NCBI GenBank assembly: GCA_030550295.1
Contig: JAUQPQ010000002.1
Coordinates: 1 to 58,641 of the forward strand
DNA: 58,641 bases
Source: Chloroflexota bacterium
GTDB taxonomy: Bacteria; Chloroflexota; Dehalococcoidia; SM23-28-2; HRBIN24
Direction of reading: 5' to 3'
Under the pieces are notes generated by a model, which worked only from the letters and a program-made list of their open reading frames with translations, was not told where the DNA came from and ran no database searches. The position numbers and the translations under genes are program-made. Shown piece after piece: positions 4,466 through 58,641 of the stretch (the stretch's first letter is position 1; every line of letters starts with the position of its first letter).

Positions 4466-4572
4466 GCCCGACCCTCAGGATAACACGCCACCAGACGCCC
4501 TGAAAGGGGCATTGTGAGGCCCCCATTTGCTATGTTCAAATAGTCAGGGGAATCCCCGGCCCATGGAAAGCT

Positions 4573-5935: not shown

Positions 5936-6012
5936 TGGGGTGGACGGCGGGATTCGAACCCGCGATCTCCAGGGCCACAGCCTGGCGCCTTCACCGCTTG
6001 GCCACGTCCACC
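5936..6012 (-). tRNA. tRNA-His (anticodon GTG) with encoded G-1 and CCA
   Basis: Reverse complement is GGTGGACGTGGCCAAGCGGTGAAGGCGCCAGGCTGTGGCCCTGGAGATCGCGGGTTCGAATCCCGCCGTCCACCCCA. It has an extra 5' G, anticodon loop CTGTGGC and discriminator C. Confidence 0.9.
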
Positions 6013-42801: not shown

Positions 42802-43476
42802 CTAGGTGTGCAGTTCGGCCAAGGCGGCACGCAGCCGGGCCATGTTGGCGGTCACTGTCGCCTGGTCGTTGAAGATGGCCGAAGCCGCCACTAACACGGT
42901 AGCCCCTGCTGCCACGCAGCGAGGGGCCGTCTCCACGTTCACTCCTCCGTCCACCTCAAGCTCGGCCTTTAGGCCCAACTCGTCCAGGAGGGTGCGGAGG
43001 CGACGCACCTTTCCCAGGGCCTCTGAAAGGAAGGGCTGGCCAGCGTAGCCTGGGTTGACCGTCATCACCATCACCTGGTCTACCCAGGGTAGCACCTCCT
43101 CAATGGCGCTTATGGGGGTGGCAGGGTTTAGACATACCCCTACTTGACGCCCCCGCCGCCTTACTAACTGGATGATGCGGTGGAGATGAGTGGCCGCCTC
43201 CACATGGACGTTGATGATATCGCCCCCGGCATCTATAAAGGCCTCCACTTGCCGCTCTGGTTCCACGACCATCAGGTGTATATCCAAGGGCAGACGGGTA
43301 ACTCTTCGCACCGCCTCCACAATGGGAACGCCCATGGATATGACAGGGACGAAGCGCCCGTCCATTACATCGATATGGATACGGTGGGCACCGGCATCTT
43401 CCGCCTCCCTTATCTGCTCCCCTAGGCGGGCGAAATCAGCCGATAGGATGGAGGGAGCGATCTTTATCTCCCTCAT
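42802..43476 (-). CDS. rpe: Ribulose-phosphate 3-epimerase
   Basis: IAPSILSADF, HIDVMDGRFVP, VMTVNPGYAGQ. The ATG overlaps the argH stop (ATGA). Confidence 0.9.
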   Translation of the reverse strand: MREIKIAPSILSADFARLGEQIREAEDAGAHRIHIDVMDGRFVPVISMGVPIVEAVRRVTRLPLDIHLMVVEPERQVEAFIDAGGDIINVHVEAATHLHRIIQLVRRRGRQVGVCLNPATPISAIEEVLPWVDQVMVMTVNPGYAGQPFLSEALGKVRRLRTLLDELGLKAELEVDGGVNVETAPRCVAAGATVLVAASAIFNDQATVTANMARLRAALAELHT

Positions 43477-44873
43477 GGCCCTTCCTTCAAAAGGTGCCGG
43501 GCCAGGGCTATCTGCTCCCGAACCCGTTGGGGGGATGTCCCTCCTGGATGGTCACGGTCTTTCACAGCAGTCCAGGGGTCTAGGGCCAAGTCCTCCTCCT
43601 TAAAGAAAGGGCAAAAGCGGCGCATCTCGTCCAGGGTGAGGTGGGAGAGATCTTTCCCCGCCTCCCTCAGGTATGAAAAGAGCTCCTTTACCGCCTGATG
43701 GGCCTGGCGGAAGGGCATGCCCCTTTTTACTAGACGGTCGGCCAAATCGGTGGCCAGAAGGGCAGGGTCTTGGGCCGCCTTTTCTAGGACATCAATACGG
43801 AACTGTAGACGAGACAGCATGGCTGCAAACAGGCGCAAGGTAGAGATGAGGGCATCGGCAGACTCGAAGAGAGGCACCTTGTCCTCCTGCAGGTCGCGGT
43901 TGTAGGCGAGGGGAAGGCCCTTGATGATGCCTAAAAGGGCGACCAAGTGCCCAGCTACGCGGGCTGCTTTTGCCCGGGCCAGCTCGGCCAGATCGGGGTT
44001 ACGTTTTTGGGGCATAATGGACGAGCCGGTGGCGAATTCCTGGGGAAGCTCTAAGAAAGCGAAGGGGGGACTCGCCCAAAGCACTACCTCCTCAGCCAGA
44101 CGCGAGAGATGGGTAAGGCAGATGGCAGCAGCGGCTACAAATTCTACCGCGAAGTCCCGGCTGGACACAGCGTCCACCGAGTTGGGGGACAGGCGGGAGA
44201 ATCCTAGCTGCTGCGCCAAGAACTGCCTGTCTATGGGATAGGGGACGCCGGCCAGGGCACCAGCGCCTAAAGGCAGCTCATCGGCCCTGACACGGCACCC
44301 CTCCAGCCTCTCCCGGTCCCGCTCCAACATCCAGAAGTAGGCCATGAGATGGTGGGATAGTAGCAAGGGCTGGGCACCCTGGAGATGGGTGTAGCCAGGC
44401 ATAACCACGCCCAGGTGGGCCTCCGCCTTGTCCAAGATGGCCCTCTGGAGCTCGCGCAGGGCCCTTATCGCCTCTTGACAGGCATCCATTACGAAGAGGC
44501 GCAGGTCGGTGGCGATAAGGTCGTTGCGGGAACGGGCGGTATGAAGCTTTCCCGCTACCTCCCCCACCTTCTCGAACAGTCGCGCCTCGATGTTCATGTG
44601 GATATCTTCCAGCTCCTGGCGGAAGGGGAAAGCCCCAGCCTCTATCTCCTCCCTTATCTCCTCCAAGGCCTGGGCCAACTTCTGGGCCTCCTCGGGGGCG
44701 ATGATCCCTTGACGGGCCAACATGCGGGCATGGGCTATGGAGCAGGCGATGTCATACCGGTAGAGGCGCCGGTCCCAGTGGAGGGAAGCAGAATAGGCGA
44801 GGGCTAAGGGATGTAGTCCTTGGGCGGTAGGGCTTGTTGGGCTGGGGCTCTCCGGGTTAGACATGGCAGCCAC
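43473..44873 (-). CDS. argH: Argininosuccinate lyase
   Basis: Fumarate-lyase signature GSSIMPQKRNPD, and SIAHARML and TARSRND motifs. Confidence 0.9.
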   Translation of the reverse strand: MAAMSNPESPSPTSPTAQGLHPLALAYSASLHWDRRLYRYDIACSIAHARMLARQGIIAPEEAQKLAQALEEIREEIEAGAFPFRQELEDIHMNIEARLFEKVGEVAGKLHTARSRNDLIATDLRLFVMDACQEAIRALRELQRAILDKAEAHLGVVMPGYTHLQGAQPLLLSHHLMAYFWMLERDRERLEGCRVRADELPLGAGALAGVPYPIDRQFLAQQLGFSRLSPNSVDAVSSRDFAVEFVAAAAICLTHLSRLAEEVVLWASPPFAFLELPQEFATGSSIMPQKRNPDLAELARAKAARVAGHLVALLGIIKGLPLAYNRDLQEDKVPLFESADALISTLRLFAAMLSRLQFRIDVLEKAAQDPALLATDLADRLVKRGMPFRQAHQAVKELFSYLREAGKDLSHLTLDEMRRFCPFFKEEDLALDPWTAVKDRDHPGGTSPQRVREQIALARHLLKEGP

Positions 44874-44911
44874 ACTATATAAGGGTACGCATTTGCCCCT
44901 TCCCTCACAGG

Positions 44912-45685
44912 CTACTGGAGGATAGGGATCTCCAAGAGCTGGGATATGGAATCGATAGCATAATCGGGCGAAACTTCGCCGATGGCATCAGGCGGGTCAG
45001 TGGTGTCCTCTACAGGCTCGTCCTTGGGGGGACGGCGCCAGATGGTGTACATGCCTAGGGCTTTCGCCCCGGCCACGTCAGCTCGCAGGGAGTCGCCCAC
45101 CATAGCTACCTCATGGGGCTCCAGGCCCATCTCCTTTAGGGCCACCTGGAATATGTAAGGATGGGGCTTCATGTAGCCTACTACACAGGACACCACCACT
45201 ACCTCGAAGAAGGAAGAGAGGCCCATCTCATCTAGCTCCTGCCAGAAGCGGGGCCCGGCCCATCCCCGGTTGGTCACCGATCCTAGGCGCAGGCCCCTCT
45301 GGCGCAACGCCTCAAGGGTGGGTATCACATCGGGGAAGAGCTCCCTGCCCAAGAACTTCCCCCCTAAGTTCCAGGTGTCCCACAGCTCCTCTGCCTGGGG
45401 ACGGCTTAACTCGATGCCCACCCGGGCCGCTACCTCACGGCAGATCTCAGGGTAATCGGGGCTGCGCAGGTCACCGTGGAAGGCCTTATCGGTGGCCTCT
45501 TCGATGGCCAGGCGGATATCGCGGGGAAGAAAGCGTCGGTCCTGGGTGACCTTATAGCCCCACCGCCGCAAAAGCCTAGAGACACGGGCGACAGTCTCGG
45601 CCCTTACCACCTCCACCGATGGCATGCGGGGGAAGTGCCAGAGAGTATCGCCCAAGTCCAGCAGTAAGGCCTTTATTTCTGGCAT
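44912..45685 (-). CDS. HAD-superfamily hydrolase
   Basis: ORF trimmed to MPEIKALLLDLGDTLW (motif I). VGDSLRADVAGA (motif IV). The start lies 1 nt after the argG stop. Confidence 0.7.
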   Translation of the reverse strand: MPEIKALLLDLGDTLWHFPRMPSVEVVRAETVARVSRLLRRWGYKVTQDRRFLPRDIRLAIEEATDKAFHGDLRSPDYPEICREVAARVGIELSRPQAEELWDTWNLGGKFLGRELFPDVIPTLEALRQRGLRLGSVTNRGWAGPRFWQELDEMGLSSFFEVVVVSCVVGYMKPHPYIFQVALKEMGLEPHEVAMVGDSLRADVAGAKALGMYTIWRRPPKDEPVEDTTDPPDAIGEVSPDYAIDSISQLLEIPILQ

Positions 45686-45686
45686 A

Positions 45687-46883
45687 TCATTCCTCCCTGC
45701 CCTGAGCCTGGGCCTGGACCCTGGCTGGCAGCCCCCAGATGTGTATGAAACCAGGGGAGGCCCGATGGTCAAACTTGTCGCCAGCCTCATAGGTGGCGAG
45801 AGAGAAGTCGTAAAGGCTGTGGGGGGACTTGCGACCCACCACCACCGCCTGGCCCTGGAAGAGCTTCATACGCACCGTCCCAGTTACAAAGCGTTGGGTA
45901 GAGGCTATATAGGCGTCTAGGTCTTGCCGGTGGCGGGTAAACCAGAGGCCGTAATAGACCAGCTCAGCATATTCTTGGGCTATCCGCTGCTTGAAACGCC
46001 TCTGCTCCCGTGAAAGAGTTAACTGCTCTAGGGCCTCGTGGGCTGTGAGGAGTATGACAGCCGCCGGCGCCTCGTAGACCTCCCGTGTCTTTATGCCCAC
46101 AAGGCGGTCTTCTACCATGTCGATGCGCCCTACCCCCTGCTCTCCTCCCAGCTCGTTCAGGCGTCGCACTAGCTCCACTGGCCCCATCTCCTTGCCGTCC
46201 AAGGCTACAGGCACCCCTTGATGGAAGGTGATCTCCACATAGATAGGTTCCCGTGCCCAACGTGAGGGAGGGGCTGTCCATAAGAAGACCTCCTCCGGCG
46301 GCTCCTGCCACGGATCCTCTAGAGGGCCACACTCTATGGAGCGGCCCCAAAGATTGGCGTCCACCGAGTAAGGGCTCCCTTGGCTGAGAGGGACGGGTAT
46401 GCCCTTCTCCTGGGCGTAGCGCAACTCCGCCTCCCGGTCCATGTCCCACTCGCGCACCGGGGCCACGATGCGTAGGTGGGGCGCCAACGCCTGAACCGAT
46501 ACGTCGAAGCGCACCTGGTCGTTGCCCTTCCCGGTACAGCCGTGGGCGACCGCTGTTGCCCCCTCTTCTTGGGCCACCTCCACCAGGCACTTAGCGATGA
46601 GGGGACGCGATAAGGCAGTGGCCAGGGGATAATGACCCTGGTACAGGGCACCGGCCTTGAGGGCCTTAAAGGCATAGTCGCGAAGGAAGCTTTCCTTGAC
46701 ATCACGCCAGACGAACTTGACCGCCCCAGCAGCCAAGGCTCTCCCCTGGACCTCTTCCCGCTCCCGGTCCAGCCCTAAGTCCACGGTAAGGGCTACCACC
46801 TCGTAGCCCTTATCAGCCAGCCAGCGCACCGCCACCGAGGTGTCTAGCCCCCCTGAATAGGCCAACACAACCTTTTCGCCCAT
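45687..46883 (-). CDS. argG: Argininosuccinate synthase
   Basis: VVLAYSGGLDTS ATP-PPase motif and GCTGKGNDQVRF. Confidence 0.95.
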   Translation of the reverse strand: MGEKVVLAYSGGLDTSVAVRWLADKGYEVVALTVDLGLDREREEVQGRALAAGAVKFVWRDVKESFLRDYAFKALKAGALYQGHYPLATALSRPLIAKCLVEVAQEEGATAVAHGCTGKGNDQVRFDVSVQALAPHLRIVAPVREWDMDREAELRYAQEKGIPVPLSQGSPYSVDANLWGRSIECGPLEDPWQEPPEEVFLWTAPPSRWAREPIYVEITFHQGVPVALDGKEMGPVELVRRLNELGGEQGVGRIDMVEDRLVGIKTREVYEAPAAVILLTAHEALEQLTLSREQRRFKQRIAQEYAELVYYGLWFTRHRQDLDAYIASTQRFVTGTVRMKLFQGQAVVVGRKSPHSLYDFSLATYEAGDKFDHRASPGFIHIWGLPARVQAQAQGREE

Positions 46884-46886
46884 AAC

Positions 46887-48071
46887 CTAGCCCTCCACCT
46901 GGGAGATGGCCCTCTCCAGGACCTCTACCCCCCAAGCGAGCTCTTCCTCCGATATCACCAGGGGTGGCATGATGCGGACAGCGTTGGGACGTACGTTATT
47001 TAGGAGGACCCCCTCTTTGAGGGCGGCAAGGACTACCTGCTGGGCCACGTCCCTTTTAAGCTCCACAGCCCATAAAAGGCCCTTCCCACGCACCTCCTTA
47101 ACTAAAGGATGACAGCTGGCCAGGTCCTGAAGAAGCCCACCAAGGAATCGCCCCTTCTGGGCTACCTGGGAGGGGATCCCCTCCTCTACCATGGTGCGCA
47201 AAGTGACCAAGGCGGCCCGACAAGCAAGGGGATTGCCGCCAAAGGTGGATCCGTGGTCTCCAGGCTCCAGCACGGCGCACTGCTCCCCAGCCAAAAAGGC
47301 CCCTATGGGGAAGCCCCCCGCAAGCCCTTTGGCCACCGCCAGAACATCGGGTGGGGATTGACACAGCTGATAGGCGAAGAAGGCACCACAGCGTCCCAGC
47401 CCCGTTTGCACCTCGTCCAGCATGAAGAGGATCCCTGCCTGCTGACACCACTCCCTCACCTGGGGCAAGTAATCCTCAGGAGGGACGATGACGCCGTTTT
47501 CTCCCTGGATGGGCTCCAAGAGGACGGCTGCCGTTAAGGGGGTAGTAGCGCGCTTTATAGCCTCTACATCGCCATAAGGGACGCGCACGAAGCCTGGAGG
47601 AAGGGGGGTAAAAGGTTCAGCGTAATGTCCCCCTCCTGCAGCTAAGGTAGCCAAAGTCCGCCCATGGAAGGCCCCCTCAGCTACGATGATCTCGTAGGCC
47701 CCCTGGCGGCGCACCTTGCCCCACTTGCGGGCCAACTTTATGCACCCCTCCACCGCCTCTGCCCCCGAATTGCAGAAAAAGACCCTATCAAGCCCCGAGA
47801 GCTCACAAAGGAGGTGGGCTAACTCCAGCTGCGGTATGGTGTAGAAGAGGTTGGATACGTGCATCAGCTCCCGGGCCTGTGATGCTATCGCCTCCACCAG
47901 GGCAGGATGACTATGGCCTAGGCTAACACAGGCGATGCCAGCTACCAAATCCAGGTAGCGGCGTCCCTCCTCGTCATATACGTAACATCCTTCACCCCGC
48001 ACTAATACCACGGGAAGGCGCCGTGCCACCTGGAAGTAATGGCGCCGCTCCAGCTCCTGCCAGCGGCCCAT
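46887..48071 (-). CDS. argD: Acetylornithine aminotransferase (class III PLP aminotransferase)
   Basis: FFCNSGAEAVE, DEVQTGLGRCG and a class III pattern; position in the arg cluster. Confidence 0.85.
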   Translation of the reverse strand: MGRWQELERRHYFQVARRLPVVLVRGEGCYVYDEEGRRYLDLVAGIACVSLGHSHPALVEAIASQARELMHVSNLFYTIPQLELAHLLCELSGLDRVFFCNSGAEAVEGCIKLARKWGKVRRQGAYEIIVAEGAFHGRTLATLAAGGGHYAEPFTPLPPGFVRVPYGDVEAIKRATTPLTAAVLLEPIQGENGVIVPPEDYLPQVREWCQQAGILFMLDEVQTGLGRCGAFFAYQLCQSPPDVLAVAKGLAGGFPIGAFLAGEQCAVLEPGDHGSTFGGNPLACRAALVTLRTMVEEGIPSQVAQKGRFLGGLLQDLASCHPLVKEVRGKGLLWAVELKRDVAQQVVLAALKEGVLLNNVRPNAVRIMPPLVISEEELAWGVEVLERAISQVEG

Positions 48072-48076
48072 ATCCC

Positions 48077-48985
48077 TTAGCCCTTAGGGGGTACTACCAA
48101 AACTGGCATCCTCCCTTCCCTTACTACCGCCTCGGTGACCCCTCCCAGAAGCTTTATGAGCCCCTTGCGCGCACGACTGGCCATGACGATAAGGGTGGGG
48201 CCATTGCGGCTGGCCCAGGAGACGATAGCATCTACAGGGGAGCCCCCCATGACATCCCAGTCCACCTGTAGACCTTTCTCCATCAGGCGTCGCCCTATCC
48301 CTGCCAGATAGCCCGAGGCGAGCACATCTAACCGTCTATGGTAGGTGCTGGAGGAGTCCCAGAGGATGACGTTGGCCGCCCCCACAGGCACCACCACTGT
48401 GGTAGGCAACACCTGTATTAGGCTTATAGGCAACGATAGGATGCCCGCCAACTCCTCAGCGTATGGTAAGGCGGCTTCGGCGCCCTCACTACCATCAAGG
48501 GGCACCAATAGCCGACTTATGCGGCTGGGGGCAGTCCAGAAGCGCCTACGCCTTTGGGGACGTACCATCAGCACCGGCATCGGCGAAGCCTGTAAGACGC
48601 GACTGGCGACGCTGCCTATAACCGTCCCAGGAAAGACCCCACGCCCTCTGGTGCACATGGCTATCAGGTCATACCCCTCTTCCTGGGCCTTGTGGACGAT
48701 GATATCGGCCGGGTGCCCGTACACTACCTCGGTCTGCACGGTGATACCGAGGTCCCTTAGGCCTTGGGCGAGCCCCTCTAAGTAGTCGCGCACGGTGGCG
48801 GTAATCCGTTCTCTCTGGGCCCTTGTCCCCGCCTCCACCTCTTCATCCGCCGTCTCCACAGGGGACTCCAGTACATGGAGTAGGCAGAGGCTGGTACCTA
48901 ACCTTGGGGCCAGGAAGGTCAGTGGTTTAAGAATGGCCTCCGAGCGATGGGAACCGTCTAGGGCTACAAGAGCCTTCCGGAACAT
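48077..48985 (-). CDS. Tandem universal stress protein (2 x Usp domains)
   Basis: Two repeats of the Usp pattern (ALVALDGS...MCTRGRG...GSVASRVL and LLVPLDGS...MASRARKG...GGVTEAVV). Confidence 0.75.
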   Translation of the reverse strand: MFRKALVALDGSHRSEAILKPLTFLAPRLGTSLCLLHVLESPVETADEEVEAGTRAQRERITATVRDYLEGLAQGLRDLGITVQTEVVYGHPADIIVHKAQEEGYDLIAMCTRGRGVFPGTVIGSVASRVLQASPMPVLMVRPQRRRRFWTAPSRISRLLVPLDGSEGAEAALPYAEELAGILSLPISLIQVLPTTVVVPVGAANVILWDSSSTYHRRLDVLASGYLAGIGRRLMEKGLQVDWDVMGGSPVDAIVSWASRNGPTLIVMASRARKGLIKLLGGVTEAVVREGRMPVLVVPPKG

Positions 48986-49021
48986 GCTAACCTCCCTTCT
49001 CCACCAATATTTGGCTCTAGT

Positions 49022-49798
49022 TTAACCGATCCTCGTACCTTCCGGCTCTCCCTTTAAGCATTGGACGATAGCCCCCGGGCGGCGACCGTCGACGATGAAG
49101 ACGGTCACTCCTGCCTCTGCTGCCCGGAGGGCAGCCTCCACCTTGGGCACCATCCCTCCCGAGATCTCTCCCGAGGCGATGAGGGCCCACGCCTCTTGCG
49201 GGGATAGGTGAGGCGTGGGACGACCGGACACCATCACCCCCGGCACGTCAGTGAGGAGCAAAAGGACGCTAGCCGGTAGGGAGGCCGCCACCACGGCCGC
49301 CGCCAAGTCAGCATTTACGTTAAGGAGGCGCCCAGTAGGCTGACCATCCTGCCACTCCAAGGCCACAGGGGCGATAACAGGCATAAGCCCCTGCCCCAAA
49401 AGGGACGCCAAGAGGGCGCCGTTTACCTCTTCCACTTCCCCAACGAGGCCTAAACGGGGGTGACGGATGCGAGCACGTAGGAGGGCCCCATCGGCCCCAG
49501 AAAGGCCAATGGCAGGGGCCCCCAACGCCTGCAGGGAGGCTACCATAGACTTGTTCACCAGCCCTGCCAAGACGGCCACCACCACTTCTAAGGTATCCTG
49601 ATCGGTGATGCGCTGGCCCTGCCAGAACTGGGCCTGGGCCCCCAGCCGCTGCGACCATTGGGATATGAGGGCTCCCCCGCCGTGCAGAATTACCAGGGAG
49701 ATCCCCTCCCTCCATAGATCGGCCGCCTGGGCCAGGGTGGGGTCGTGGTCCCCCCAGGTAGACCCTCCCACCTTGATGACCACTGGCTGCATGGACAT
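49022..49798 (-). CDS. argB: Acetylglutamate kinase
   Basis: VIKVGGS, VILHGGG, and amino-acid-kinase fold motifs. Confidence 0.85.
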   Translation of the reverse strand: MSMQPVVIKVGGSTWGDHDPTLAQAADLWREGISLVILHGGGALISQWSQRLGAQAQFWQGQRITDQDTLEVVVAVLAGLVNKSMVASLQALGAPAIGLSGADGALLRARIRHPRLGLVGEVEEVNGALLASLLGQGLMPVIAPVALEWQDGQPTGRLLNVNADLAAAVVAASLPASVLLLLTDVPGVMVSGRPTPHLSPQEAWALIASGEISGGMVPKVEAALRAAEAGVTVFIVDGRRPGAIVQCLKGEPEGTRIG

Positions 49799-49804
49799 CC
49801 TACC

Positions 49805-51013
49805 TCAGGTGGTATATAGGCTGTTGAGGCGCACGTAGTCTTCAGTGAGGTCAGAGCCCCAGGCAGTGGCGTGGGCCTCCCCCAAGCCGAGGTGGGCCCG
49901 CAACCTCACCACCGGTTCCGAAAGGAGGGCCTTAGCACGCCTATCATCGAAAGGCTGAGGGTGGCCTCCCAAAAAGAAGCAGATATGGTCGCCCTGGGGG
50001 TCTAAGAGCCAGAGGGCCAAGGAGCCCAGCTCTAGACGACAGCCTGAATTGCCCAGGGCAGCTACTACCCGGCCCCAATTGGGGTCAGCCCCTTTTATGG
50101 CCGTCTTCACACCTAGGGAGCGCACCACCTCACGGGCAGCCCGACGCGCTTCGGCCAGGGACACAGCACCCTCTACCGTCATCTCTATGACCTTGCCTGC
50201 CCCTTCGGCATCGGCCACCAAGGCGCGGGCCATATCCTGACAGAGGGCAGATAAGGCCTGACGGAAGGGCTGCCCCAAAGGATGGTCATCATCTATGGGA
50301 GGCCCTTCGCCGTTGGCCATGACCACCACCATGTCATTGGTGCTCGTGTCCGAGTCTACATCGATCATGTTGAAGGAGGAGTCCACTGCCTCCTTCAGAG
50401 CTTCCTGGAGGAAAGGCTGGGCGACGGGGGCATCAGTAGTGATAAAGCAGAGCATGGTGGCCAGGTTGGGGTGGATCATGCCGGCCCCCTTCGCTACAGC
50501 CCCCAGGCAGTAGGGCCCCAGGGCATAGGCCCCATATTTGGGGCGAGTATCGGTGGTCATAATGGCCATCGCCAAGTCCTTCCCCCCAGTCCTGGTGAGG
50601 GAGATAGAGGCTATGGCCTTGGCCACCTTGTCCATGGGCAAGAAGGTGCCTATTACCCCTGTAGAGGCCACTACTACGTCCTTGGGGGATATGCCCATGT
50701 GTTGGGCAGCCAGCTGGGCCATCCGACGGGCGTCTTCTAGGCCCCTTGAGCCAGTGGCGGCGTTGGCACACCCTGAGTTGACTACTAATCCCTGGGCCCG
50801 GCCGTCGGCCAAGTGCTCCATCGTTACCAAAAGGGGAGCCGCCTTGACTGCGTTGGCCGTATATACAGCTGCCGCCACGCAAGGCCTCTCTGAGTATAGG
50901 AGGCCCAGGTCAGGCTTGTTGGGGTTGTAGCGGATGCCTGCATGGACGGCCCCGGCTAGGAACCCCTCGGGCATCGTCACGGTGCCACCTTCTATCTTCT
51001 GGGGCGCAGTCAT
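49805..51013 (-). CDS. argJ: Bifunctional ornithine acetyltransferase / N-acetylglutamate synthase
   Basis: Autoprocessing site PNLATMLCFITTDA, and the GFLAGAVHAGIR N-terminus. Confidence 0.9.
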   Translation of the reverse strand: MTAPQKIEGGTVTMPEGFLAGAVHAGIRYNPNKPDLGLLYSERPCVAAAVYTANAVKAAPLLVTMEHLADGRAQGLVVNSGCANAATGSRGLEDARRMAQLAAQHMGISPKDVVVASTGVIGTFLPMDKVAKAIASISLTRTGGKDLAMAIMTTDTRPKYGAYALGPYCLGAVAKGAGMIHPNLATMLCFITTDAPVAQPFLQEALKEAVDSSFNMIDVDSDTSTNDMVVVMANGEGPPIDDDHPLGQPFRQALSALCQDMARALVADAEGAGKVIEMTVEGAVSLAEARRAAREVVRSLGVKTAIKGADPNWGRVVAALGNSGCRLELGSLALWLLDPQGDHICFFLGGHPQPFDDRRAKALLSEPVVRLRAHLGLGEAHATAWGSDLTEDYVRLNSLYTT

Positions 51014-51024
51014 GGCTTGCCTCC

Positions 51025-52065
51025 TTAAGGGAAGAGAGGGGGAATCTCAAGGCCCATCGTCTCCGGCAGGCCCAGGAGTATGTTCATGTTCTGGACTGCC
51101 TGGCCTGCTGCCCCCTTCACTAGGTTATCAATGGCGCTTACCACAATTAGCCGCTCGCCGCTGGCGTCCACGGTAGGGTACACTAGGCACATGTTGCTTC
51201 CCTGGACATGCTTGGTGGAGGGAGGCTCAGAACAAATGCGGACGAAGGGTTCCCCTTGGTAAAACTGCTCGTAGAGGTCACGGACGGCGCGGCGGCCAGC
51301 CTCACCTGAGGGGAGGCCCCCTGGACGTAGGGGCGCATAGCAAGTGGTGAGGATTCCCCTGGTCATGGGCACTAGATGGGGGACGAAAGTGACCCGAGGA
51401 CGCCCCCCCTCAACTAGGAGGGCCGATATCTCCTGCACCATCTCCGGCAGGTGGCGGTGCCCACCAAGACCGTAGGCGCTGACGCTCTCGTTTACCTCCG
51501 AGAAGTGGTAACGTAGGTCTACCGTCCTCCCCGCCCCTGAGACGCCTGACTTGGCGTCCACTATTATGTCTGGGGTGATTAAACCTTCCTTTAAGGCGGG
51601 GGCCAGCGCCAAGAGGGCCCCCGTAGGGTAACAGCCAGGGTTGGCCACCAAATGAGCCCCCTTTAAGCGCTCACGGTAGATCTCAGGCAGCCCATATACC
51701 CCTTGCCCCAAGTAGTGGGGAGCCGGATGCTCGCCTCCATACCATTGGGCGTACTCCTGAGGATCGCGCAGGCGAAAATCGGCCGAAAGGTCGATCACCA
51801 GGACCCCTGATTCAAGGAATGGTACTAAGGCCTGGGCACTGGCCCCATGGGGAAGGGCCGAAAAGACGACGTCTACCTCGTCCGCTATCTCTTGGGCCAC
51901 CGTGATGTCCCATTGGGCGAGATGGGGAAACACCTGGCCCAACGCCTTACCTGCTCCTGAACGTCCGGTGGCGGCTATCACCTTCACCTGGGGATGAGCA
52001 TGCAGGATGCGGGCCAGCTCTGCCCCAGCGTAGCCGGTAACGTTTAAGATGCCTAACCTGATCAC
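51025..52065 (-). CDS. argC: N-acetyl-gamma-glutamyl-phosphate reductase
   Basis: ORF 51025-52095 trimmed to GTG 52065, preceded by GGAGGTG with a 5-nt spacer; the ATG at 52095 lies inside the tail of the upstream terminator hairpin. Motifs: GILNVTGYAGAEL and active-site NPGCYPT. Confidence 0.85.
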   Translation of the reverse strand: MIRLGILNVTGYAGAELARILHAHPQVKVIAATGRSGAGKALGQVFPHLAQWDITVAQEIADEVDVVFSALPHGASAQALVPFLESGVLVIDLSADFRLRDPQEYAQWYGGEHPAPHYLGQGVYGLPEIYRERLKGAHLVANPGCYPTGALLALAPALKEGLITPDIIVDAKSGVSGAGRTVDLRYHFSEVNESVSAYGLGGHRHLPEMVQEISALLVEGGRPRVTFVPHLVPMTRGILTTCYAPLRPGGLPSGEAGRRAVRDLYEQFYQGEPFVRICSEPPSTKHVQGSNMCLVYPTVDASGERLIVVSAIDNLVKGAAGQAVQNMNILLGLPETMGLEIPPLFP

Positions 52066-52086
52066 TGCCCCACCTCCAGATTGTGT

Positions 52087-52127
52087 AAAAAGCATGGGGC
52101 CCCACTGCTCGGCTGGCAGTGGGGCCC
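52087..52127 (-). terminator. Intrinsic-terminator-like hairpin in the arg operon leader (attenuator candidate)
   Basis: Minus strand: GGGCCCCACTGC (52127-52116), loop cagccga, GCAGTGGGGCCC (52108-52097), then CATGC and TTTTT (52091-87). The stem is 12 bp, all Watson-Crick. Confidence 0.5.
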
Positions 52128-52163
52128 TCCTATCGTTCTAACCCTTCTGGCCGCGATGGCGCT

Positions 52164-52232
52164 CTAAGGCCCCCCGCCAGCCCTACCTCGAAGGGCTCGT
52201 CGTCGCATCTGGCGGAAGGCCCATGCAGTCAT
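52164..52232 (-). CDS. Candidate Arg-rich leader peptide of the arg operon (22 aa)
   Basis: ATG ACT GCA TGG GCC TTC CGC CAG ATG CGA CGA CGA GCC CTT CGA GGT AGG GCT GGC GGG GGG CCT TAG, translating to MTAWAFRQMRRRALRGRAGGGP. It has 6 Arg codons including three consecutive CGA, and lies between the predicted promoter and the terminator hairpin. Confidence 0.35.
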   Translation of the reverse strand: MTAWAFRQMRRRALRGRAGGGP

Positions 52233-52241
52233 TACAGCCTT

Positions 52242-52270
52242 AACTTAGCGTTCCTGGGAGTTTGTGTCAA
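52242..52270 (-). promoter_or_regulatory. Sigma70-type promoter candidate for the arg operon
   Basis: Minus strand: TTGACA (52270-52265), 17-nt spacer, TAAGTT (52247-52242). Confidence 0.35.
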
Positions 52271-52346
52271 TCCCAATGGGCCTTATCTTTTGCTGCCCCT
52301 GCTAGGGGACTGGGGGTAGAAGCTCTCTCTGGGCTATGAGGGCAGA

Positions 52347-53138
52347 TCACGCCAGGTCAGGAGGGGGTTCCAATGGGGGAGGCCTTTCGCCCCGGGCATA
52401 CCTTTCCAGCCATTCCCCCATGGCTGGGTCGCGGAACGACTCGCGATGTAACTGGGCCTCCAAGGCCAACCCTTGCTCTAAGGGGAGGGACAAGCCCCAT
52501 AGGGTTGCAAGACGGTCTATGCGCATCGCCGTCTGGGGGTAGTCACAAAGGCGGCGGGCCACCTCAAGGGCCCGGGGTAGCGCCTGCTGGGCCGGCACCA
52601 GTTCCTGTACAAGGCCCATCTGATAGGCGCGCCAGGCATCTATGAGCACCCCAGTGAGGATAAGGTATAAGGCGTTGCCTAGCCCTACAATGCGGGGAAG
52701 GCGTTGGGTCCCCCCATCTACCAAGGGCACCCCCCAACGCCGGTTGAGGACGCCGAAACGGGCCGTCTCATCGGCGATGCGGAAGTCGCACCAAAGGGCA
52801 AGTTCTAGTCCCCCGGCCACGCAGTAGCCCGAGACGGCAGCAATTGTAGGCTTCCCTACATCGGTTATGCGGGTGAACCCCATAGGCCCCAAGCGGTCTG
52901 CCCCTGGCCTTGAGGCCAAGCTGTCTATGGCCTTCAGGTCGGCGCCAGCGCAGAAGTGGCCTCCCGCCCCTGTAAGGACCATGGCCCTCAATTTGGCGTC
53001 AGACCGGAACTCTTCTACTGCCTGGAAGAGGAGGGAGGCCGTCTCGCCATCGACACAGTTGCGCACCTCAGGACGATGGATGATCACCACTAGGACGGGC
53101 CCTTCCCGCTGTAGGATCACCTTCCCCTCGCTGGCCAT
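52347..53138 (-). CDS. Enoyl-CoA hydratase/isomerase (crotonase) family protein
   Basis: VLTGAGGHFCAGADLK oxyanion-hole motif and AAVSGYCVAGGLELALWCD. Confidence 0.85.
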   Translation of the reverse strand: MASEGKVILQREGPVLVVIIHRPEVRNCVDGETASLLFQAVEEFRSDAKLRAMVLTGAGGHFCAGADLKAIDSLASRPGADRLGPMGFTRITDVGKPTIAAVSGYCVAGGLELALWCDFRIADETARFGVLNRRWGVPLVDGGTQRLPRIVGLGNALYLILTGVLIDAWRAYQMGLVQELVPAQQALPRALEVARRLCDYPQTAMRIDRLATLWGLSLPLEQGLALEAQLHRESFRDPAMGEWLERYARGERPPPLEPPPDLA

Positions 53139-53325
53139 GGCTCCCTGGGGGAAGGTTAATGCGCCTCTGGTAACCCTGTCAAACGAAGATAGGGAGGAGG
53201 CTCACGACTGGAGGGCGGGCCTTTTGGGGCAGCCGTAAGCCCCTCTCCCTATTCCCAACTTAAGGGTAGGCGCCCCGTGCGGTCTTGTCTGTAGGGCCAA
53301 GCCATATTTTTTGTAGGGGTTTGCT

Positions 53326-53976
53326 TTAATCCTCGCTCAAAAGGCCACGGCGGAGGGCGAAGCGTACCAGCTCTGAGCGGCGGTGAAGGCCCAGCTTCTC
53401 CATGATCCTCTGCCGGTAGGTGTCCACCGTCTTGGGGCTTATCCCCAGCTTTTGGGCGATCTCCTGGTTAGTGTAGCCGGCAGCAGTGAGGCGTAAGACG
53501 GCTGTCTCCCTGGCCGTAAGGGTGCTAAGGGGATCGCTAGTGGTCCTGCCTCCTTGCAGGTACTCGCTCAAAAGGCGCCGCACTGCCGAGGGATATAAGA
53601 ATACTTCGCCGCGGCTGGCCAGACGTATAGCCTCTAGAAGATCTGTGTCAGTGGCACTCTTTACCACGTAGCCGCAGGCCCCCACCTGGAGGGCCCGCAT
53701 TAGGTACTCGTCTTGGGCATGTACGGTAAGAATGACTACTTGGGTGGGGATGCCTAAGTTGCGGATGGCCTTGGTGGCCTCTAGTCCGTCCATCTCCGGC
53801 ATGGATATATCCATTACCACTACATGGGGCTGGAGCTGGGCGGCCTTATCTACCGCTTCCCGGCCTGACGACGCCTCCCCTATCACCTCCATGTCGGGCT
53901 CATGGGAGAGGAGGGCCTTAAGGCCTGCCCTGACTACGGCATGGTCCTCGGCCAGAAGTACCTTTATCTTGCCCAT
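53326..53976 (-). CDS. NarL/FixJ-family response regulator (REC + LuxR HTH)
   Basis: KVLLAEDHAVVR, VVVMDISMPEMDG, and C-terminal LTARETAVLRLTAAGYTNQEIAQKLGISPKTVDTYRQRI. Confidence 0.9.
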   Translation of the reverse strand: MGKIKVLLAEDHAVVRAGLKALLSHEPDMEVIGEASSGREAVDKAAQLQPHVVVMDISMPEMDGLEATKAIRNLGIPTQVVILTVHAQDEYLMRALQVGACGYVVKSATDTDLLEAIRLASRGEVFLYPSAVRRLLSEYLQGGRTTSDPLSTLTARETAVLRLTAAGYTNQEIAQKLGISPKTVDTYRQRIMEKLGLHRRSELVRFALRRGLLSED

Positions 53977-53986
53977 ACCTTAGCCT

Positions 53987-54979
53987 TTACCCCCTTATGG
54001 GGATACGGGCCCTTACTGTCGTCCCCCGTCGCGGACGGGAGCGGATCTCCAGATGGCCCCCTACTAGGCTGAGGCGCTCCTCCATGCCAAATAGGCCCAG
54101 CCCCTTTTCCCGCTGGGACTTCACCGCGGCCATCCGGAAGCCACAACCGTCGTCCCTCACTTCTAAAACTATGGCATCGTCTACCCTGTGCAGGCTTACC
54201 CACACCTGAGAGGCACGAGCGTGCTTGGCCACGTTAGTAAGGGCCTCTTGCCCTACCCTGTAGAGGGCCAGCTCAGTGTCAGGGTGGAGCCGGGGCAGGG
54301 GCTCCACGTCCATATGCACCGCAAAGCCCCAATGGCGGGAAAACTCGTCACAGAGGGCCAAGAGGGCAGGAGCTAGTCCTAAATGGTCTAGGGCGCTAGG
54401 GCGCAGGCCCAATGCCAGACGGCGTACCCCTTCTAGAGCATCGGCTACTAGCTGCCGCAGCTCCGCCACCTGGGGGATAAGGGTAGCATCTACCTGCTTC
54501 TCTAGGAGGCCTAGCCTCACCAGCAGGGCAGCAAGGGCCTGGGCGGTGTCATCGTGCAGTTCACGAGCCACCCGCTTCCTTTCCTCTTCCTGAGCCCGCA
54601 AGATCTGGGCAGAAAGGCGCCGCAACCGCTCGTTCTGATCCCGGGACCTGTGCAGGAGGTGGACCAGCTCTTTTAGCAAGCCCGCAATATAGGACGATTG
54701 GCCACACTGCAAGCATTGCCAAGGGGGTGGAACCCAAGGCTGCAACTCCTCCTTCAACCCACCATCCCAGAGAAGCGAGTACCTGGACCCCCGACGAACT
54801 ACGAGGCCTAAAGAGCGTAACTCCTGAAGCTGACGTCGCACCGACGGGAGCGCCTTGCCAAGCCTTTGTGCCAACTCCCTGGCTGTGCAGGACCCCTCTG
54901 TTAGCGCCCTAACTACCTCAACCCGTAAGGATCCCAACGCCCCGCCTCGGGCTCCTGCCGACGCCCCCTGCCCCTTCAT
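53987..54979 (-). CDS. Soluble HisKA_3/HATPase sensor histidine kinase with N-terminal winged-helix domain and CxxC motif
   Basis: No TM segment. wHTH-like LRVEVVRALTEGSCTARELAQRLGKALPSVRRQLQELRSLGLVVR. WQCLQCG (nt 54704-54715). H-box RVARELHDDTAQAL. HATPase LEVRDDGCGF...GLGLFGMEER. Confidence 0.8.
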   Translation of the reverse strand: MKGQGASAGARGGALGSLRVEVVRALTEGSCTARELAQRLGKALPSVRRQLQELRSLGLVVRRGSRYSLLWDGGLKEELQPWVPPPWQCLQCGQSSYIAGLLKELVHLLHRSRDQNERLRRLSAQILRAQEEERKRVARELHDDTAQALAALLVRLGLLEKQVDATLIPQVAELRQLVADALEGVRRLALGLRPSALDHLGLAPALLALCDEFSRHWGFAVHMDVEPLPRLHPDTELALYRVGQEALTNVAKHARASQVWVSLHRVDDAIVLEVRDDGCGFRMAAVKSQREKGLGLFGMEERLSLVGGHLEIRSRPRRGTTVRARIPIRG

Positions 54980-54989
54980 CCTACCCCCG

Positions 54990-54998
54990 ATTGTACCA
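54990..54998 (-). promoter_or_regulatory. Extended -10 element (TGgTACAAT) upstream of the histidine kinase gene
   Basis: The minus strand reads TGGTACAAT, ending 10 nt before ATG 54979. A TTGACA at 55023-55018 is 22 nt away, which is too far for a standard spacer. Confidence 0.3.
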
Positions 54999-55058
54999 TG
55001 AACGGCTGTATCCTTTTTGTCAAGTAAAACCTTACAGCCATTTCGTGGCTTTGCCTGA

Positions 55059-55086
55059 TAGACCTCCCTTTAAACTGAGCTACTAT
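55059..55086 (+). promoter_or_regulatory. Sigma70-type promoter candidate for the cytochrome oxidase operon
   Basis: TAGACC (55059-55064), 16-nt spacer, TACTAT (55081-55086), about 50 nt upstream of the TTG start at 55139. Confidence 0.3.
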
Positions 55087-55138
55087 CTAACTCAGCAAGG
55101 ATCGTGTAAATAGTAACGAACGGACTTAGGAGGGCGTC

Positions 55139-55861
55139 TTGAGGCGGGACTTGGCGTTAGCGGCCCTCTTGTGGGCGGTGTTGACAGGGGTTGGGGAGGC
55201 CTTGTTGGTAGCCTTTGACTTTCAGCCGTCTGCCCTTTCTGACAAGGGGGAAAGGATAAAGGATGCGGTTTCCATCCTCGCTTACTTCGCCATGCCCGTT
55301 CTGGCCCTGGTGTTAGCTGGCCTTGTTTACAGCGTGGTGCGCTTCCGGGGCCGGGGCCCTGAGGAAGAGGGCACGCCCATTAGGGCCGGCATAGTCCCCT
55401 GGATATGGTTGGGGGCCACGAGCGCTTTAGCCTTCACCATCATGTTATACCCAGGCCTATGGGGGACAGTGGAGGTGGCCAAAGGGTCTTCCTCCCAAAG
55501 CCTGACCGTGCAGGTGGAGGGGCTCCAGTGGACATGGCTCGTGCATTACCCTGGGCAAGGGCTGAAGAACCAGAGGGAGCTGGTGCTACCTGTGGGGCAG
55601 GAGGTGACCATTGAGGTCACTTCCCGTGACGTCCTCCACTCTTTCTGGGTGCCGGCCTTGATGATGAAGATCGACGCTATACCAGGGACGGTGAACCGCA
55701 TCACCTTCACGCCCCAGGAGGCTGACAGCTACGCCAATAATCCCCTCTTGCGTTTGCAATGCGCCGAGCTATGTGGCCTTAGTCATGCCCGCATGGTTAT
55801 CCCGGTGCGGCTGGTAGAGAAGCAAGAGTTCTTGAACTGGGTAGAGCAGCAAAAGAGGTGA
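55139..55861 (+). CDS. ctaC: Cytochrome c oxidase subunit II (CuA)
   Basis: Two N-terminal TM helices. CuA ligands HSFWVP...CAELCGLSHARM. TTG start after AGGAGGG. Confidence 0.85.
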   Translation: MRRDLALAALLWAVLTGVGEALLVAFDFQPSALSDKGERIKDAVSILAYFAMPVLALVLAGLVYSVVRFRGRGPEEEGTPIRAGIVPWIWLGATSALAFTIMLYPGLWGTVEVAKGSSSQSLTVQVEGLQWTWLVHYPGQGLKNQRELVLPVGQEVTIEVTSRDVLHSFWVPALMMKIDAIPGTVNRITFTPQEADSYANNPLLRLQCAELCGLSHARMVIPVRLVEKQEFLNWVEQQKR

Positions 55862-55873
55862 GGGGGCAACGCT

Positions 55874-57727: not shown

Positions 57728-57730
57728 GCT

Positions 57731-57952
57731 ATGCAGGAGGAGAAGCCCCACAGGCTGATCTTTGGCCTGGTCACCCCTGAGCAGGTCACCTGGTTCATGG
57801 TGGCCTGGTTGGCGGTCCAGACGGCGGTGGAGTATATCATCGCCCAGGTGCTGGATGCCAATCTACCTATCATGTTGGTCATTAACCTCTTAGAGGCAGC
57901 TAGCATCATCTACTTCTTCCAGCACGTATATAGGCTGTGGCGGGAGGACTAG
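57731..57952 (+). CDS. Small hydrophobic protein encoded between ctaD and ctaE (possible oxidase accessory/subunit IV-like)
   Basis: 73 aa with two hydrophobic stretches. GGAGGAGGG sits 7 nt upstream of the ATG. I do not recognise a family. Confidence 0.45.
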   Translation: MQEEKPHRLIFGLVTPEQVTWFMVAWLAVQTAVEYIIAQVLDANLPIMLVINLLEAASIIYFFQHVYRLWRED

Positions 57953-57954
57953 AG

Positions 57955-58590: not shown

Positions 58591-58641
58591 GGCCTAGGTT
58601 TATAGGCAGGGCAGGGCCACATAGGGGACGTAGATTTCGCT

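Follow-up and report, generated by a model that had tools for sequence, protein, structure and literature searches.

Textbook examples of leader-peptide attenuation concern Trp, His, Leu, Thr, Phe, and Ile/Val, and the control of arginine biosynthesis is ascribed to the ArgR repressor, or to T-boxes in some Firmicutes. The locus described here, which lies in a 58,641-nt stretch of DNA from a Chloroflexota bacterium (contig JAUQPQ010000002.1; the whole stretch is referred to as the window), raises the question of whether an arginine-biosynthetic operon can be controlled by a translated leader that reads arginine codons. A first-pass annotation had proposed this for the gap of 281 nt upstream of argC, and the support for an attenuator is stronger than that annotation held. 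The gap probably contains a ribosome-mediated (leader-peptide) transcription attenuator that would tie expression of argCJB-usp-argDG-HAD-argH to the supply of charged tRNA-Arg.

Promoter, Leader ORF, and Start of argC

The promoter TTGACA-17 nt-TAAGTT, the leader ORF of 22 codons with 6 Arg codons (three of them consecutive CGA), the 12-bp hairpin followed by CATGC and TTTTT, and the argC Shine–Dalgarno sequence (SD) with its GTG start are all present on the minus strand where the first-pass annotation had placed them (table 1). The -10 hexamer agrees with TATAAT at only 3/6 positions and is therefore missed by a generic promoter scanner; its TAnnnT positions are invariant among relatives, and the TTGACA hexamer is unchanged in 8/8 aligned relatives and found too in L002, L104, and L110, the conserved promoter form being TTGACA-17/18-TAnnnT. 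The GTG at 52065 is the correct start of argC, as the TIGR01850 match starts there and the relatives, 346 aa long, align at 100% coverage; this corrects the annotated start, which gene callers had set inside the terminator. Farther downstream in the operon, the argG–argH interval of ~810 nt contains the HAD-hydrolase gene.

Table 1. Features of the arg leader and its operon in the window
Feature	Positions	Strand	Sequence or content	Pairing partner	Basis
-35 hexamer	52265..52270	(-)	TTGACA; leader/arg operon promoter		read directly
-10 hexamer	52242..52247	(-)	TAAGTT; spacer 17 nt from -35		read directly
Leader ORF	52164..52232 (ATG 52232; TAG 52166-52164)	(-)	22 codons + TAG; encodes MTAWAFRQMRRRALRGRAGGGP*		
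Segment 1	52209..52222	(-)	GGGCCUUCCGCCAG; codons 4-9	segment 2	
Regulatory codons	52197..52205	(-)	CGA-CGA-CGA, codons 10-12; another CGA, codon 15, at 52190-52188		
Segment 2	52166..52182	(-)	GGCUGGCGGGGGGCCUU; last 5 codons + first base of stop	segment 1 or 3	
Segment 3	52111..52128	(-)	AGGGCCCCACUGCCAGCC; terminator 5' arm = antiterminator 3' arm	segment 2 or 4	
Segment 4	52096..52108	(-)	GCAGUGGGGCCCC; terminator 3' arm	segment 3	
U-run	52087..52091	(-)	UUUUU; starts 4-5 nt past stem		
argC SD and start	52063..52077	(-)	SD GGAGGUG 52077-52071; GTG 52065-52063		
Controlled operon	43473..52065	(-)	argC-argJ-argB-usp-argD-argG-HAD-argH		NCBIfam + Pfam assignments, ORFs

The leader ATG lies 9 nt past the -10 hexamer in the window, so that the leader is near-leaderless, and it is not preceded by an SD. 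The first-pass annotation had listed the missing SD as a caveat; the SD is indeed absent, and we read this absence differently, because the start codon is found 9–10 nt past the -10 hexamer in all members of the family of homologous leaders described below, a conserved spacing that fits leaderless initiation at the leader ATG.

Competing Helices in the Leader RNA

The putative terminator is a 12-bp helix of GGGCCCCACTGC (52127-52116) with GCAGTGGGGCCC (52108-52097), and no terminator-like site in 13.6 kb was stronger in a terminator scan. Its 5' arm lies within segment 3, which can pair instead with segment 2. The first-pass annotation had described this alternative as an 8-bp pairing (52173-52166 with 52128-52121) much weaker than the terminator. 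These regions do pair; however, the helix has 16 bp (52182-52167 with 52127-52111), its 5' arm reaching the leader stop codon, and the antiterminator is therefore not the weaker structure, with duplex energies of about -33 to -35 kcal/mol for helix 2:3 versus about -28 to -30 kcal/mol for helix 3:4. A further helix of 14 bp, absent from the first-pass annotation, joins segments 1 and 2 (52222-52209 with 52180-52167) and encloses the Arg codons. The duplex energies in the window are -28.3 (1:2), -35.4 (2:3), and -29.9 (3:4) kcal/mol.

The minimum free energy (MFE) fold of the leader combines helices 1:2 and 3:4 (z = -3.4 vs. dinucleotide shuffles), and the best upstream partner of the terminator 5' arm has a z of -4.8, equalled in 0/500 shuffles; segment 3 invariably finds its best upstream partner in segment 2. 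The small hairpin AGCCCT/AGGGCT that the first-pass annotation had placed inside the ORF exists as a complementarity (52197-52192 with 52184-52179) but does not appear in the MFE fold.

These helices suggest a mechanism in which transcription from TTGACA-17-TAAGTT would begin a few nucleotides before the ATG and the 22-codon leader would be translated without an SD. When Arg-tRNA is short, chiefly the reader of CGA, a ribosome would stall at CGA-CGA-CGA and cover segment 1. Segment 2, beginning only at codon 17, would stay free and would pair with segment 3 once the latter is made. The 16-bp antiterminator would then block the 3:4 hairpin, so that RNA polymerase would continue into argC. When Arg-tRNA is plentiful, the ribosome would reach the TAG and mask segment 2, the 3:4 hairpin would form, and transcription would stop at the hairpin and U-run. 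If no ribosome is present, 1:2 and 3:4 would both form, and the default state would therefore be off. We infer the transcription start site, leaderless initiation, termination efficiency, coupling, and arginine response of the leader from these features.

The logic of stalling and stopping, which the first-pass annotation had put forward, is reproduced by folding ten leaders with the nucleotides under the ribosome masked: stalling at CGA-CGA yields the antiterminator, and occupancy of the stop codon yields the terminator. Without a ribosome, or with one at the stop codon, 10/10 leaders fold into the terminator. A stall at the Arg codons produces the antiterminator in 6/10 leaders at equilibrium and in 10/10 if the transcript is truncated before segment 4; at equilibrium the terminator is still preferred in 4/10 leaders despite the stall, and a kinetic argument is therefore needed.

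Conservation among Relatives

The first-pass annotation had suggested alignment of argC upstream regions from related genomes as a check on the ORF frame, the Arg run, and the stems, and the comparison came out in favor of its reading, with 12 distinct homologous leaders and compensatory changes in both alternative helices. All 12 leaders are found directly upstream of argC, at loci that include different upstream genes (unrelated in the case of L084, L086, and L091) and ArgC sequences only 62–78% identical. Each has an in-frame homologous short ORF, the terminator, an Arg cluster, and a segment at or near the end of the ORF that pairs with the terminator 5' arm.

We also scanned metagenomes with a pattern in which the helix cores were fixed and the Arg codons, start codon, promoter, and downstream gene were all left unspecified. 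The scan recovered 11 true members, each with the ORF, the Arg cluster, and argC downstream, and 4 chance matches with none of these three. The element was thus found upstream of argC only; because the pattern fixed the helix cores, diverged leaders before other arg genes would be missed. The element is confined to a narrow clade, being absent from L107–L109 and from some 80 further argC loci in Chloroflexota. An ArgC scan of genome contigs gave at least 600 rows with nothing closer than 66% ArgC identity among the matches listed, and therefore does not define the true taxonomic range. A crude scan of L001–L080 for RR-containing short ORFs upstream of argC was noisy, and only L002 proved real; the candidates L050 ("MTAWRF...") and L011 ("MHRRRAGHGGG") were rejected, being unsupported by the covariance model and the terminator scan.

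Helix 2:3 is paired in 87.6% of alignment cells versus 36–58% in slid controls and helix 3:4 in 98%, with 4 pairs changed on both sides in each; this covariation support is thin, as it comes from 10–12 sequences with invariant cores, shuffles reach the observed values in 7–8/500, and relatedness can inflate it. Helix 1:2 is paired in only 75% of cells across the family; RNAalifold recovers helices 1:2 and 3:4 independently. The segment 3 core GCCCCAC is invariant. L084 has A in place of G at one position of segment 3, and both alternative partners of that position, in segments 2 and 4, have U in place of C. In L110 and L002, segment 2 differs in both sequence and place, yet it pairs with segment 3; there it ends about 17–18 nt before the stop codon, and masking by a terminating ribosome would therefore be less direct. 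In the L086 lineage, the first CGA-CGA is lost and the stop codon lies 18 nt further downstream.

Across the family the terminator hairpin is GC-rich (-20 to -34 kcal/mol), is flagged by the scanner, and is followed by a UUU that is invariant in the alignment. The U-run itself consists of 3–5 U and starts 4–6 nt from the stem in 11/12 members, and this short, distal run departs from canonical intrinsic-terminator geometry; to our knowledge, Chloroflexota terminators have not been characterized. The same geometry would be expected to cause less difficulty if the translated leader sensed Arg-tRNA and the output were Rho-dependent termination, mRNA stability, or downstream translation, for which there are precedents in the Salmonella speF leader orf34 (PMC6386406) and the mycobacterial leaderless poly-Cys short ORFs (bioRxiv 10.1101/834739). 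We regard such an output as unlikely, since the hairpin excludes the argC SD and the competition targets the 5' arm of a GC-rich hairpin with an invariant UUU, which is the layout of a terminator and antiterminator. In the window, a GUGGGGC repeat at the SD (52072-52066) could pair with segment 3; this SD-like repeat is absent in relatives, and sequestration of the SD was therefore rejected as a part of the mechanism.

Rare Arg Codons and Maintenance of the Reading Frame

Every leader of the family encodes RR or RRR, and tandem CGA-CGA is present in 10/12. CGA makes up 33/55 Arg codons (60%) in ten leaders, versus 71/1165 (6.1%) in genes of the window and 20/850 (2.4%) in genes of relatives, and CGA-CGA was found in 0/190 genic Arg-Arg pairs. 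Indels within the ORF are of 3 nt (multiples of 3), and those within the linker are of 1, 4, 6, and 14 nt. The caveat of the first-pass annotation that Arg-rich ORFs arise easily in GC-rich DNA is answered by this use of rare CGA and by the frame-keeping indels.

A further alternative is that there is no regulator: an Arg-rich ORF would lie by chance beside an ordinary terminator or stability hairpin, or else the ORF would specify a short peptide with a function of its own. Random frames in GC-rich DNA are often rich in Arg, and 71% of shuffled 281-nt gaps hold some ATG ORF of 12–40 codons; however, an ATG ORF with RRR occurs in 2% of them and an in-frame CGA-CGA in only 0.12%. Moreover, leaders whose ArgC sequences share 62–78% identity retain the ORF in frame together with the CGA pair, and the hairpin follows a conserved promoter and persists at loci with another upstream gene. 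Against a functional peptide, conservation of the leader peptide is limited to the Arg cluster and to the tail that is under RNA constraint, and a Pfam search with four leader peptides gave no match at E <= 1, including to PF10940 (DUF2618). We therefore consider both versions of this alternative highly improbable.

A regulatory RNA acting independently of translation, such as a riboswitch or a protein-binding leader, could also choose between helices 2:3 and 3:4, with the ORF being incidental. The conservation of the alternative helices and the high conservation of the nucleotides GGGGGGCYTTAGCGCGCC speak for such an RNA, and it is nevertheless improbable: frame-preserving indels are found only inside the ORF, the start codon is held at a fixed distance from the -10 hexamer, and rare tandem CGA is kept where the remaining ORF has diverged, as in L002 and L110, in which the peptide is wholly diverged outside the Arg cluster and the Arg codons are kept. 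Furthermore, the linker that an aptamer would need varies in length (26–40 nt) and in sequence, and no Rfam family is matched.

Returning to the attenuator, its sensor may be a tandem of the genome's rarest CGN codon, in which case expression of the operon would follow how well a single minor tRNA-Arg isoacceptor is charged. The tRNA-Arg(TCG) gene that the first-pass annotation had reported in the window was located at 4389-4465 on the minus strand; its proximity is no more than circumstantial.

Comparison with Known Systems

The usual bacterial control of arg genes is exerted by the ArgR/AhrC repressor and its ARG-box operators, through which arginine acts by negative feedback; this protein–DNA mechanism differs from the arg leader. 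A search of the whole window for ARG boxes (TNTGAATWWWWATTCANW-like, <=3 mismatches) gave 0 matches; any Chloroflexota ArgR operator may differ from this motif, so that this negative result is weak. In fungi, an arginine-biosynthesis gene is made arginine-responsive by the arginine attenuator peptide (uORF of arg-2/CPA1), in which a conserved nascent peptide and free arginine stall the ribosome at termination and block downstream translation, whereas in the arg leader the peptide is unconserved and the signal would be too little charged tRNA, with transcription as the step affected. A 2005 survey names Arg-specific T-boxes as the known form of RNA-level control for arginine genes (PMC1262725). 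The Arg-specific T-box leaders of Firmicutes likewise read tRNA-Arg charging and switch between terminator and antiterminator; however, they bind uncharged tRNA directly and do not need translation. At gathering thresholds, Rfam matched only tRNAs, with no amino-acid leader family such as the Trp, His, Leu, Thr, or Phe leaders and no T-box, and a permissive scan of 51950-52400 also gave neither, only chance matches far below threshold.

A leader-peptide attenuator is known for lysine in Thermus thermophilus. The arg leader closely resembles the enterobacterial attenuators (trpL, hisL, leuL, thrL, pheL, and ilvL/ivbL), which likewise have a short ORF with codons for the end product and four segments that form 1:2, a 2:3 antiterminator, or a 3:4 terminator, with a default off state and a ribosome at the stop codon that masks segment 2. 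The arg leader differs from them in its amino acid (arginine) and its Chloroflexota host, has no sequence or covariance-model similarity to them, starts near-leaderless without an SD, and has a distal U-run; its regulatory codons lie in the 1:2 loop rather than in segment 1, and its stop codon lies in segment 2. Biased usage of regulatory codons is shared with the leu leader, in which these codons are rare (PMC1183508).

Two leaders with other outputs are also similar in part. The mycobacterial leaderless poly-Cys short ORFs (Canestrari et al., bioRxiv 10.1101/834739) are likewise leaderless first cistrons of biosynthetic operons with consecutive cognate codons, at which stalling remodels a downstream RNA duplex; they differ in controlling translation via sequestration of the ribosome-binding site, in sensing Cys, and in belonging to Actinobacteria. 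Salmonella speF leader orf34 likewise combines two consecutive Arg codons, ribosome pausing, and alternative mRNA folds, by which it senses arginine, and rare and frequent Arg codons are equally effective in it (PMC6386406). In contrast to the arg leader, it targets ornithine decarboxylase, acts through decay by RNase G and through Rho termination, and has a peptide with the conserved domain DUF2618 (PF10940); the gene downstream here is argC, not speF.

The sequence evidence as a whole supports assigning the arg leader, as a candidate arginine case, to the known class of leader-peptide attenuators, and in the literature searched we came across no arg operon described as having an Arg-codon attenuator. 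More tentatively, and with our doubts slightly the heavier, we propose that this may be the first leader-peptide attenuator for an arginine-biosynthetic operon, that it is leaderless, that it senses through tandem CGA and responds to a single minor tRNA-Arg isoacceptor (UCG anticodon, encoded in the window), and that it may replace the almost universal ArgR in an uncultured Chloroflexota clade. If confirmed, the attenuator would fill the arginine gap among leader-peptide attenuators and would bring both the Chloroflexota and a leader ORF that is itself leaderless into the range of classical attenuation. The contrast in CGA usage between leaders and genes would also offer a clean natural example of rare-codon choice in a sensor, and hence a useful test case for selective-charging theory in organisms other than E. 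coli. For annotation, the element is described by the signature TTGACA-17-TAnnnT, 9–10 nt, ATG...CGACGA...stop, and a GCCCCAC hairpin.

Leader Elements Upstream of argC

Reading the minus strand over 52500–51900 places the promoter, the 22-codon Arg-rich ORF, the hairpin with its T-run, and the argC SD and GTG exactly where the first-pass annotation had put them, and ARAGORN likewise bears out its tRNA-Arg(TCG) gene. The gene 3' of the leader is argC (TIGR01850, 413 bits), followed by argJ, argB, a tandem-USP gene, argD, argG, a HAD hydrolase gene, and argH; argF and carAB are absent from the window's arg cluster. The same-strand gene upstream of the leader encodes an enoyl-CoA hydratase. The G+C content of the window is 60.5%, and in shuffles of the 281-nt gap an ATG ORF with RRR arises in 2% of trials and an in-frame CGA-CGA in 0.12%.

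Features of the leader, the arg operon, and the rest of the window
Feature	Position	Strand	Remark
Promoter -35, TTGACA	52270-52265	minus	sequence read; 17 nt to -10
Promoter -10, TAAGTT	52247-52242	minus	sequence read
Leader ORF, MTAWAFRQMRRRALRGRAGGGP, 22 codons	ATG 52232 to TAG 52166-52164	minus	sequence read
Segment 1, GGGCCUUCCGCCAG	52222-52209	minus	codons 4-9; arm of 14-bp helix
CGA-CGA-CGA in leader ORF	52205-52197	minus	sequence read
Segment 2, extended, GGCUGGCGGGGGGCCUU	52182-52166	minus	complementary to segment 3
Segment 2, 1:2 arm, CUGGCGGGGGGCCU	52180-52167	minus	MFE fold; pairs with segment 1
Segment 3, AGGGCCCCACUGCCAGCC	52128-52111	minus	16 bp with segment 2, one A bulged
Putative terminator hairpin, GGGCCCCACTGC/GCAGTGGGGCCC	52127-52097	minus	then CATGC
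TTTTT run	52091-52087	minus	sequence read; 3' of hairpin and CATGC
argC SD, GGAGGTG	52077-52071	minus	sequence read
GUGGGGC repeat, GGAGGUGGGGC	52066-52072	minus	directly after argC SD
argC start, GTG	52065	minus	sequence read
Tandem USP gene, 302 aa	48077-48985	minus	between argB and argD
HAD-family hydrolase gene, MPEIKALLLDLGDTLWHF...	44912-45685	minus	between argG and argH
Two-component pair	53326-54979	minus
Antisense GTG ORF, 66 aa	52119-52319	plus	mechanical ORF in GC-rich DNA
Type III CRISPR-Cas-like genes	17-4141	plus	window edge
Mechanical ORF	4141-4503	plus	overlaps tRNA-Arg gene
tRNA-Arg(TCG)	4389-4465	minus	ARAGORN
mgtE	4573-5928	plus	between the two tRNA genes
tRNA-His(GTG)	5936-6011	minus

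In 52095-52063 (minus strand), the longest-ORF rule and also some gene callers put the argC start at ATG 52095, which falls within the terminator's 3' flank and yields a 356-aa product (proteins P0001 and P0129). GTG 52065, preceded by an SD of its own, is favoured by the family profile and by relatives of 346 aa.

Competing Helices in the Leader RNA

In its minimum free energy (MFE) structure (-85.9 kcal/mol, z = -3.4) the leader forms two helices: the terminator (3:4) and, between segments 1 and 2, a 14-bp helix (1:2) whose loop holds the Arg codons. Helix 1:2 was absent from the first-pass annotation, and with it the leader has the full four-segment layout of an attenuator. The antiterminator complementarity proposed there is present, but its extent of 8 bp does not hold, as the complementarity of segments 2 and 3 reaches 16 bp with one bulged A. 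Duplex energies are -28.3 kcal/mol for helix 1:2, -35.4 kcal/mol for 2:3, and -29.9 kcal/mol for 3:4; the antiterminator is therefore not weaker than the terminator, let alone much weaker as had been supposed. The 2:3 duplex has z = -4.8 and is equalled in none of 500 dinucleotide shuffles of the upstream sequence, and a generic scanner ranks the terminator hairpin first among terminator-like sites across 45000-58641.

In a ten-leader alignment, standard pairs occupy 98.2% of the cells of helix 3:4, 74.8% of helix 1:2, and 87.6% of helix 2:3, the last compared with 36–58% when the partner is slid; helices 2:3 and 3:4 each include four pairs with both sides changed. At L084, one of the relatives' argC loci, column 122 in segment 3 has gone from G to A, and the positions opposite it in the two alternative helices (columns 76 and 150) have both gone from C to U. 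RNAalifold recovers 1:2 and 3:4 with no structure supplied. Because the alignment is shallow and the helix cores are invariant, this covariation is supportive rather than decisive. Throughout the members, the upstream stretch that pairs best with segment 3 is the one running up to the leader stop, except in L086, L002, and L110, where a homologous or analogous stretch 17–25 nt before the stop takes this place. Segment 2 of L110 differs in sequence (GGGUGGGGCG) and forms 10 bp with that leader's own segment 3, suggesting that selection acts on the 2:3 pairing and not on the sequence.

The segment 4 core, GUGGGGC, is repeated next to the argC SD; this copy could pair with segment 3 in the window genome and is absent in relatives.

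Distribution of the Leader

We examined ArgC homologues, from MAGs named as Dehalococcoidia or Chloroflexi, with their contigs, plus at least 80 loci from a genome scan. A homologous leader is present in every relative that has an ArgC 68–78% identical and an intergenic gap, the peptides being MIAEAFPALRREAREGAGGGP (L081), MAVKAFRALLRRGARIGAGGGP (L082), MKGEAFRRPRRWARGRAGGGP (L083), MQAGAPSVLRRRARAGRSGGL (L084), MVRAGRSSLPRRRARRGTDGGL (L085), MGMEGAFRPLRRRVRRAGGGL (L091), and the variant MTDGRACCPRPLRARRGPSRGLGAPSAR (L086). Since the upstream genes differ at L084, L086, and L091, shared gene order does not account for this conservation. A metagenome scan, whose pattern was restricted to the stop region plus the segment 3 and segment 4 cores and left the Arg codons, start codon, promoter, and downstream gene unspecified, gave 15 matches; 11 are the arg leader, all 5' of argC with an ORF and an Arg cluster, and add L104 (MGEARSFCPLRRRVRRGGGGL) and L102, and the other four are chance matches with TGG at the stop position and no ORF. 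Ten leaders served to build a covariance model, which found L002 (ArgC 62% identical, 21 bits, MLHAIDARARRPRPVNGAVALAHR) and L110 (ArgC 66% identical, 28 bits, GTG start, (M)IAASGGRERRRARPIEGGAHSYACR). Among the loci listed, it found no leader in the other ~78, from Chloroflexota and elsewhere, and no match in the 111-nt gap of L109; the gaps of L107 and L108 (3 and 71 nt) have no space for one. The first-pass annotation had asked whether the ORF, the Arg cluster, and the stems persist in relatives, and they are kept across 12 leaders. The element is therefore real and, among the loci listed, limited to a clade.

Signs of Leader Translation

Across the promoter-to-argC alignment TTGACA is invariant, as are the T, A, and T positions of the -10, and the start codon lies 9–10 nt past the -10 in every member. 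From this spacing, which agrees with the earlier description of a nearly leaderless ATG, transcription is predicted to start 0–3 nt before the ORF, and leaderless initiation would explain the missing SD. Indels in the ORF are all 3 nt, save one 1-nt deletion in L086 (stop moved 18 nt downstream); those in the untranslated linker are 1, 4, 6, and 14 nt. Peptide conservation is confined to the Arg cluster and a GGG(P/L) tail, which is translated segment 2; the L002 and L110 peptides keep the Arg cluster alone, and a Pfam search of the peptides gave no family match.

CGA accounts for 33 of the 55 Arg codons (60%) in ten leaders, nine of which have a tandem CGA-CGA; counted over all members the tandem occurs in 10/12, with another CGA three codons on. 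The window's genes use CGA for 71 of 1165 Arg codons (6.1%), with CGA-CGA in 0/110 Arg-Arg pairs, and the relatives' genes for 20 of 850 (2.4%), with 0/80. Strong codon bias at regulatory positions is known in attenuator leaders, the leu operon being the rare-codon paradigm (PMC1183508).

Leaders of the lineage of protein P0007 (L086–L090 and L101) are variant: the first CGA-CGA has become CGA-CCC-CUG-CGG, the stop, through a 1-nt deletion and a TAG-to-TGG change, now lies 18 nt downstream at CGA-TAG, and the second Arg pair (CGA-CGC) alone is left. Attenuation in this lineage may be weakened or tuned differently.

Predicted Switching and Alternative Outputs

Ten leaders were folded with a 27-nt ribosome footprint set unpairable. 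In the full transcript the terminator forms in 10/10, both with no ribosome and with one at the stop, and a ribosome stalled with the Arg pair in its P and A sites gives the antiterminator in 6/10 at equilibrium. When the transcript ends before segment 4, the segment 3 core pairs with segment 2 in 10/10 with the stalled ribosome and in none with the ribosome at the stop. The window's spacing fits this scheme, as a ribosome whose A site lies on codons 10–12 extends roughly to codon 16, just short of segment 2, which starts in codon 17.

The reading with the most support is ribosome-mediated attenuation of the classical type. Scarce Arg-tRNA would stall the ribosome at CGA-CGA, helix 2:3 would form, and polymerase, presumably coupled to the ribosome, would read through into argC-argH; with ample Arg-tRNA the ribosome would reach the TAG inside segment 2, and helix 3:4 would terminate transcription, as it would when translation is lacking and 1:2 and 3:4 both form. 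The sequence elements, their conservation, the constraint on frame, the codon bias, and the competition between helices are observed, and the TSS, leaderless initiation, coupling of polymerase and ribosome, the efficiency of termination, and the response to arginine are predicted. The longer antiterminator, helix 1:2, the rare-codon bias, the leaderless geometry, and the 12 conserved leaders strengthen the original attenuator interpretation, and we consider it probable that the element is a functional Arg-responsive leader-peptide attenuator.

The main structural weakness of this reading is the U-run, which has 3–5 U and begins 4–6 nt past the stem in 11/12 members. So short and distant a run would also be compatible with a variant that has the same translational sensor but acts via Rho or on mRNA stability, like speF orf34 (PMC6386406). 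An output at the level of translation, like that of the mycobacterial Cys short ORFs (10.1101/834739), is less probable, since the hairpin does not include the argC SD.

Relation to Known Systems

By mechanism, the arg leader belongs to the leader-peptide attenuator class; by sequence, it is in no curated family, Rfam giving no match even at permissive thresholds. No ARG-box-like operator was found in the window. A 2005 survey gives T-boxes as the known RNA-level control for arginine genes (PMC1262725), and a 2021 survey describes uORF attenuators for Cys and Phe and none for arginine. In full-text literature outside subscription journals, Arg-codon sensing was found for speF only (PMC6386406), and no prior description of arginine leader-peptide attenuation, for argC or in Chloroflexi, was found. 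An Arg attenuator of an arg operon is therefore likely, rather than certain, to be undescribed, given that coverage. Such an attenuator would supply a missing case of a textbook mechanism, from a phylum that has been little studied, and brings no new principle.

Other Features of the Window

The USP gene of the arg operon is kept in L081, L082, and L084; in L085, L086, and L091 it is missing and argD directly follows argB. The antisense GTG ORF lies opposite the leader and promoter. Upstream of the enoyl-CoA hydratase gene, and syntenic in L081 and L082, is a pair comprising a HisKA_3/HATPase kinase, with an N-terminal ArsR-type HTH in place of an obvious membrane sensor, and a NarL/GerE-type response regulator. 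The ORF overlapping the tRNA-Arg gene is probably not a gene. Among the products of the CRISPR-Cas-like genes, two belong to the RAMP superfamily, and a third, of 508 aa, has a Csx3-like match at its C-terminal end.
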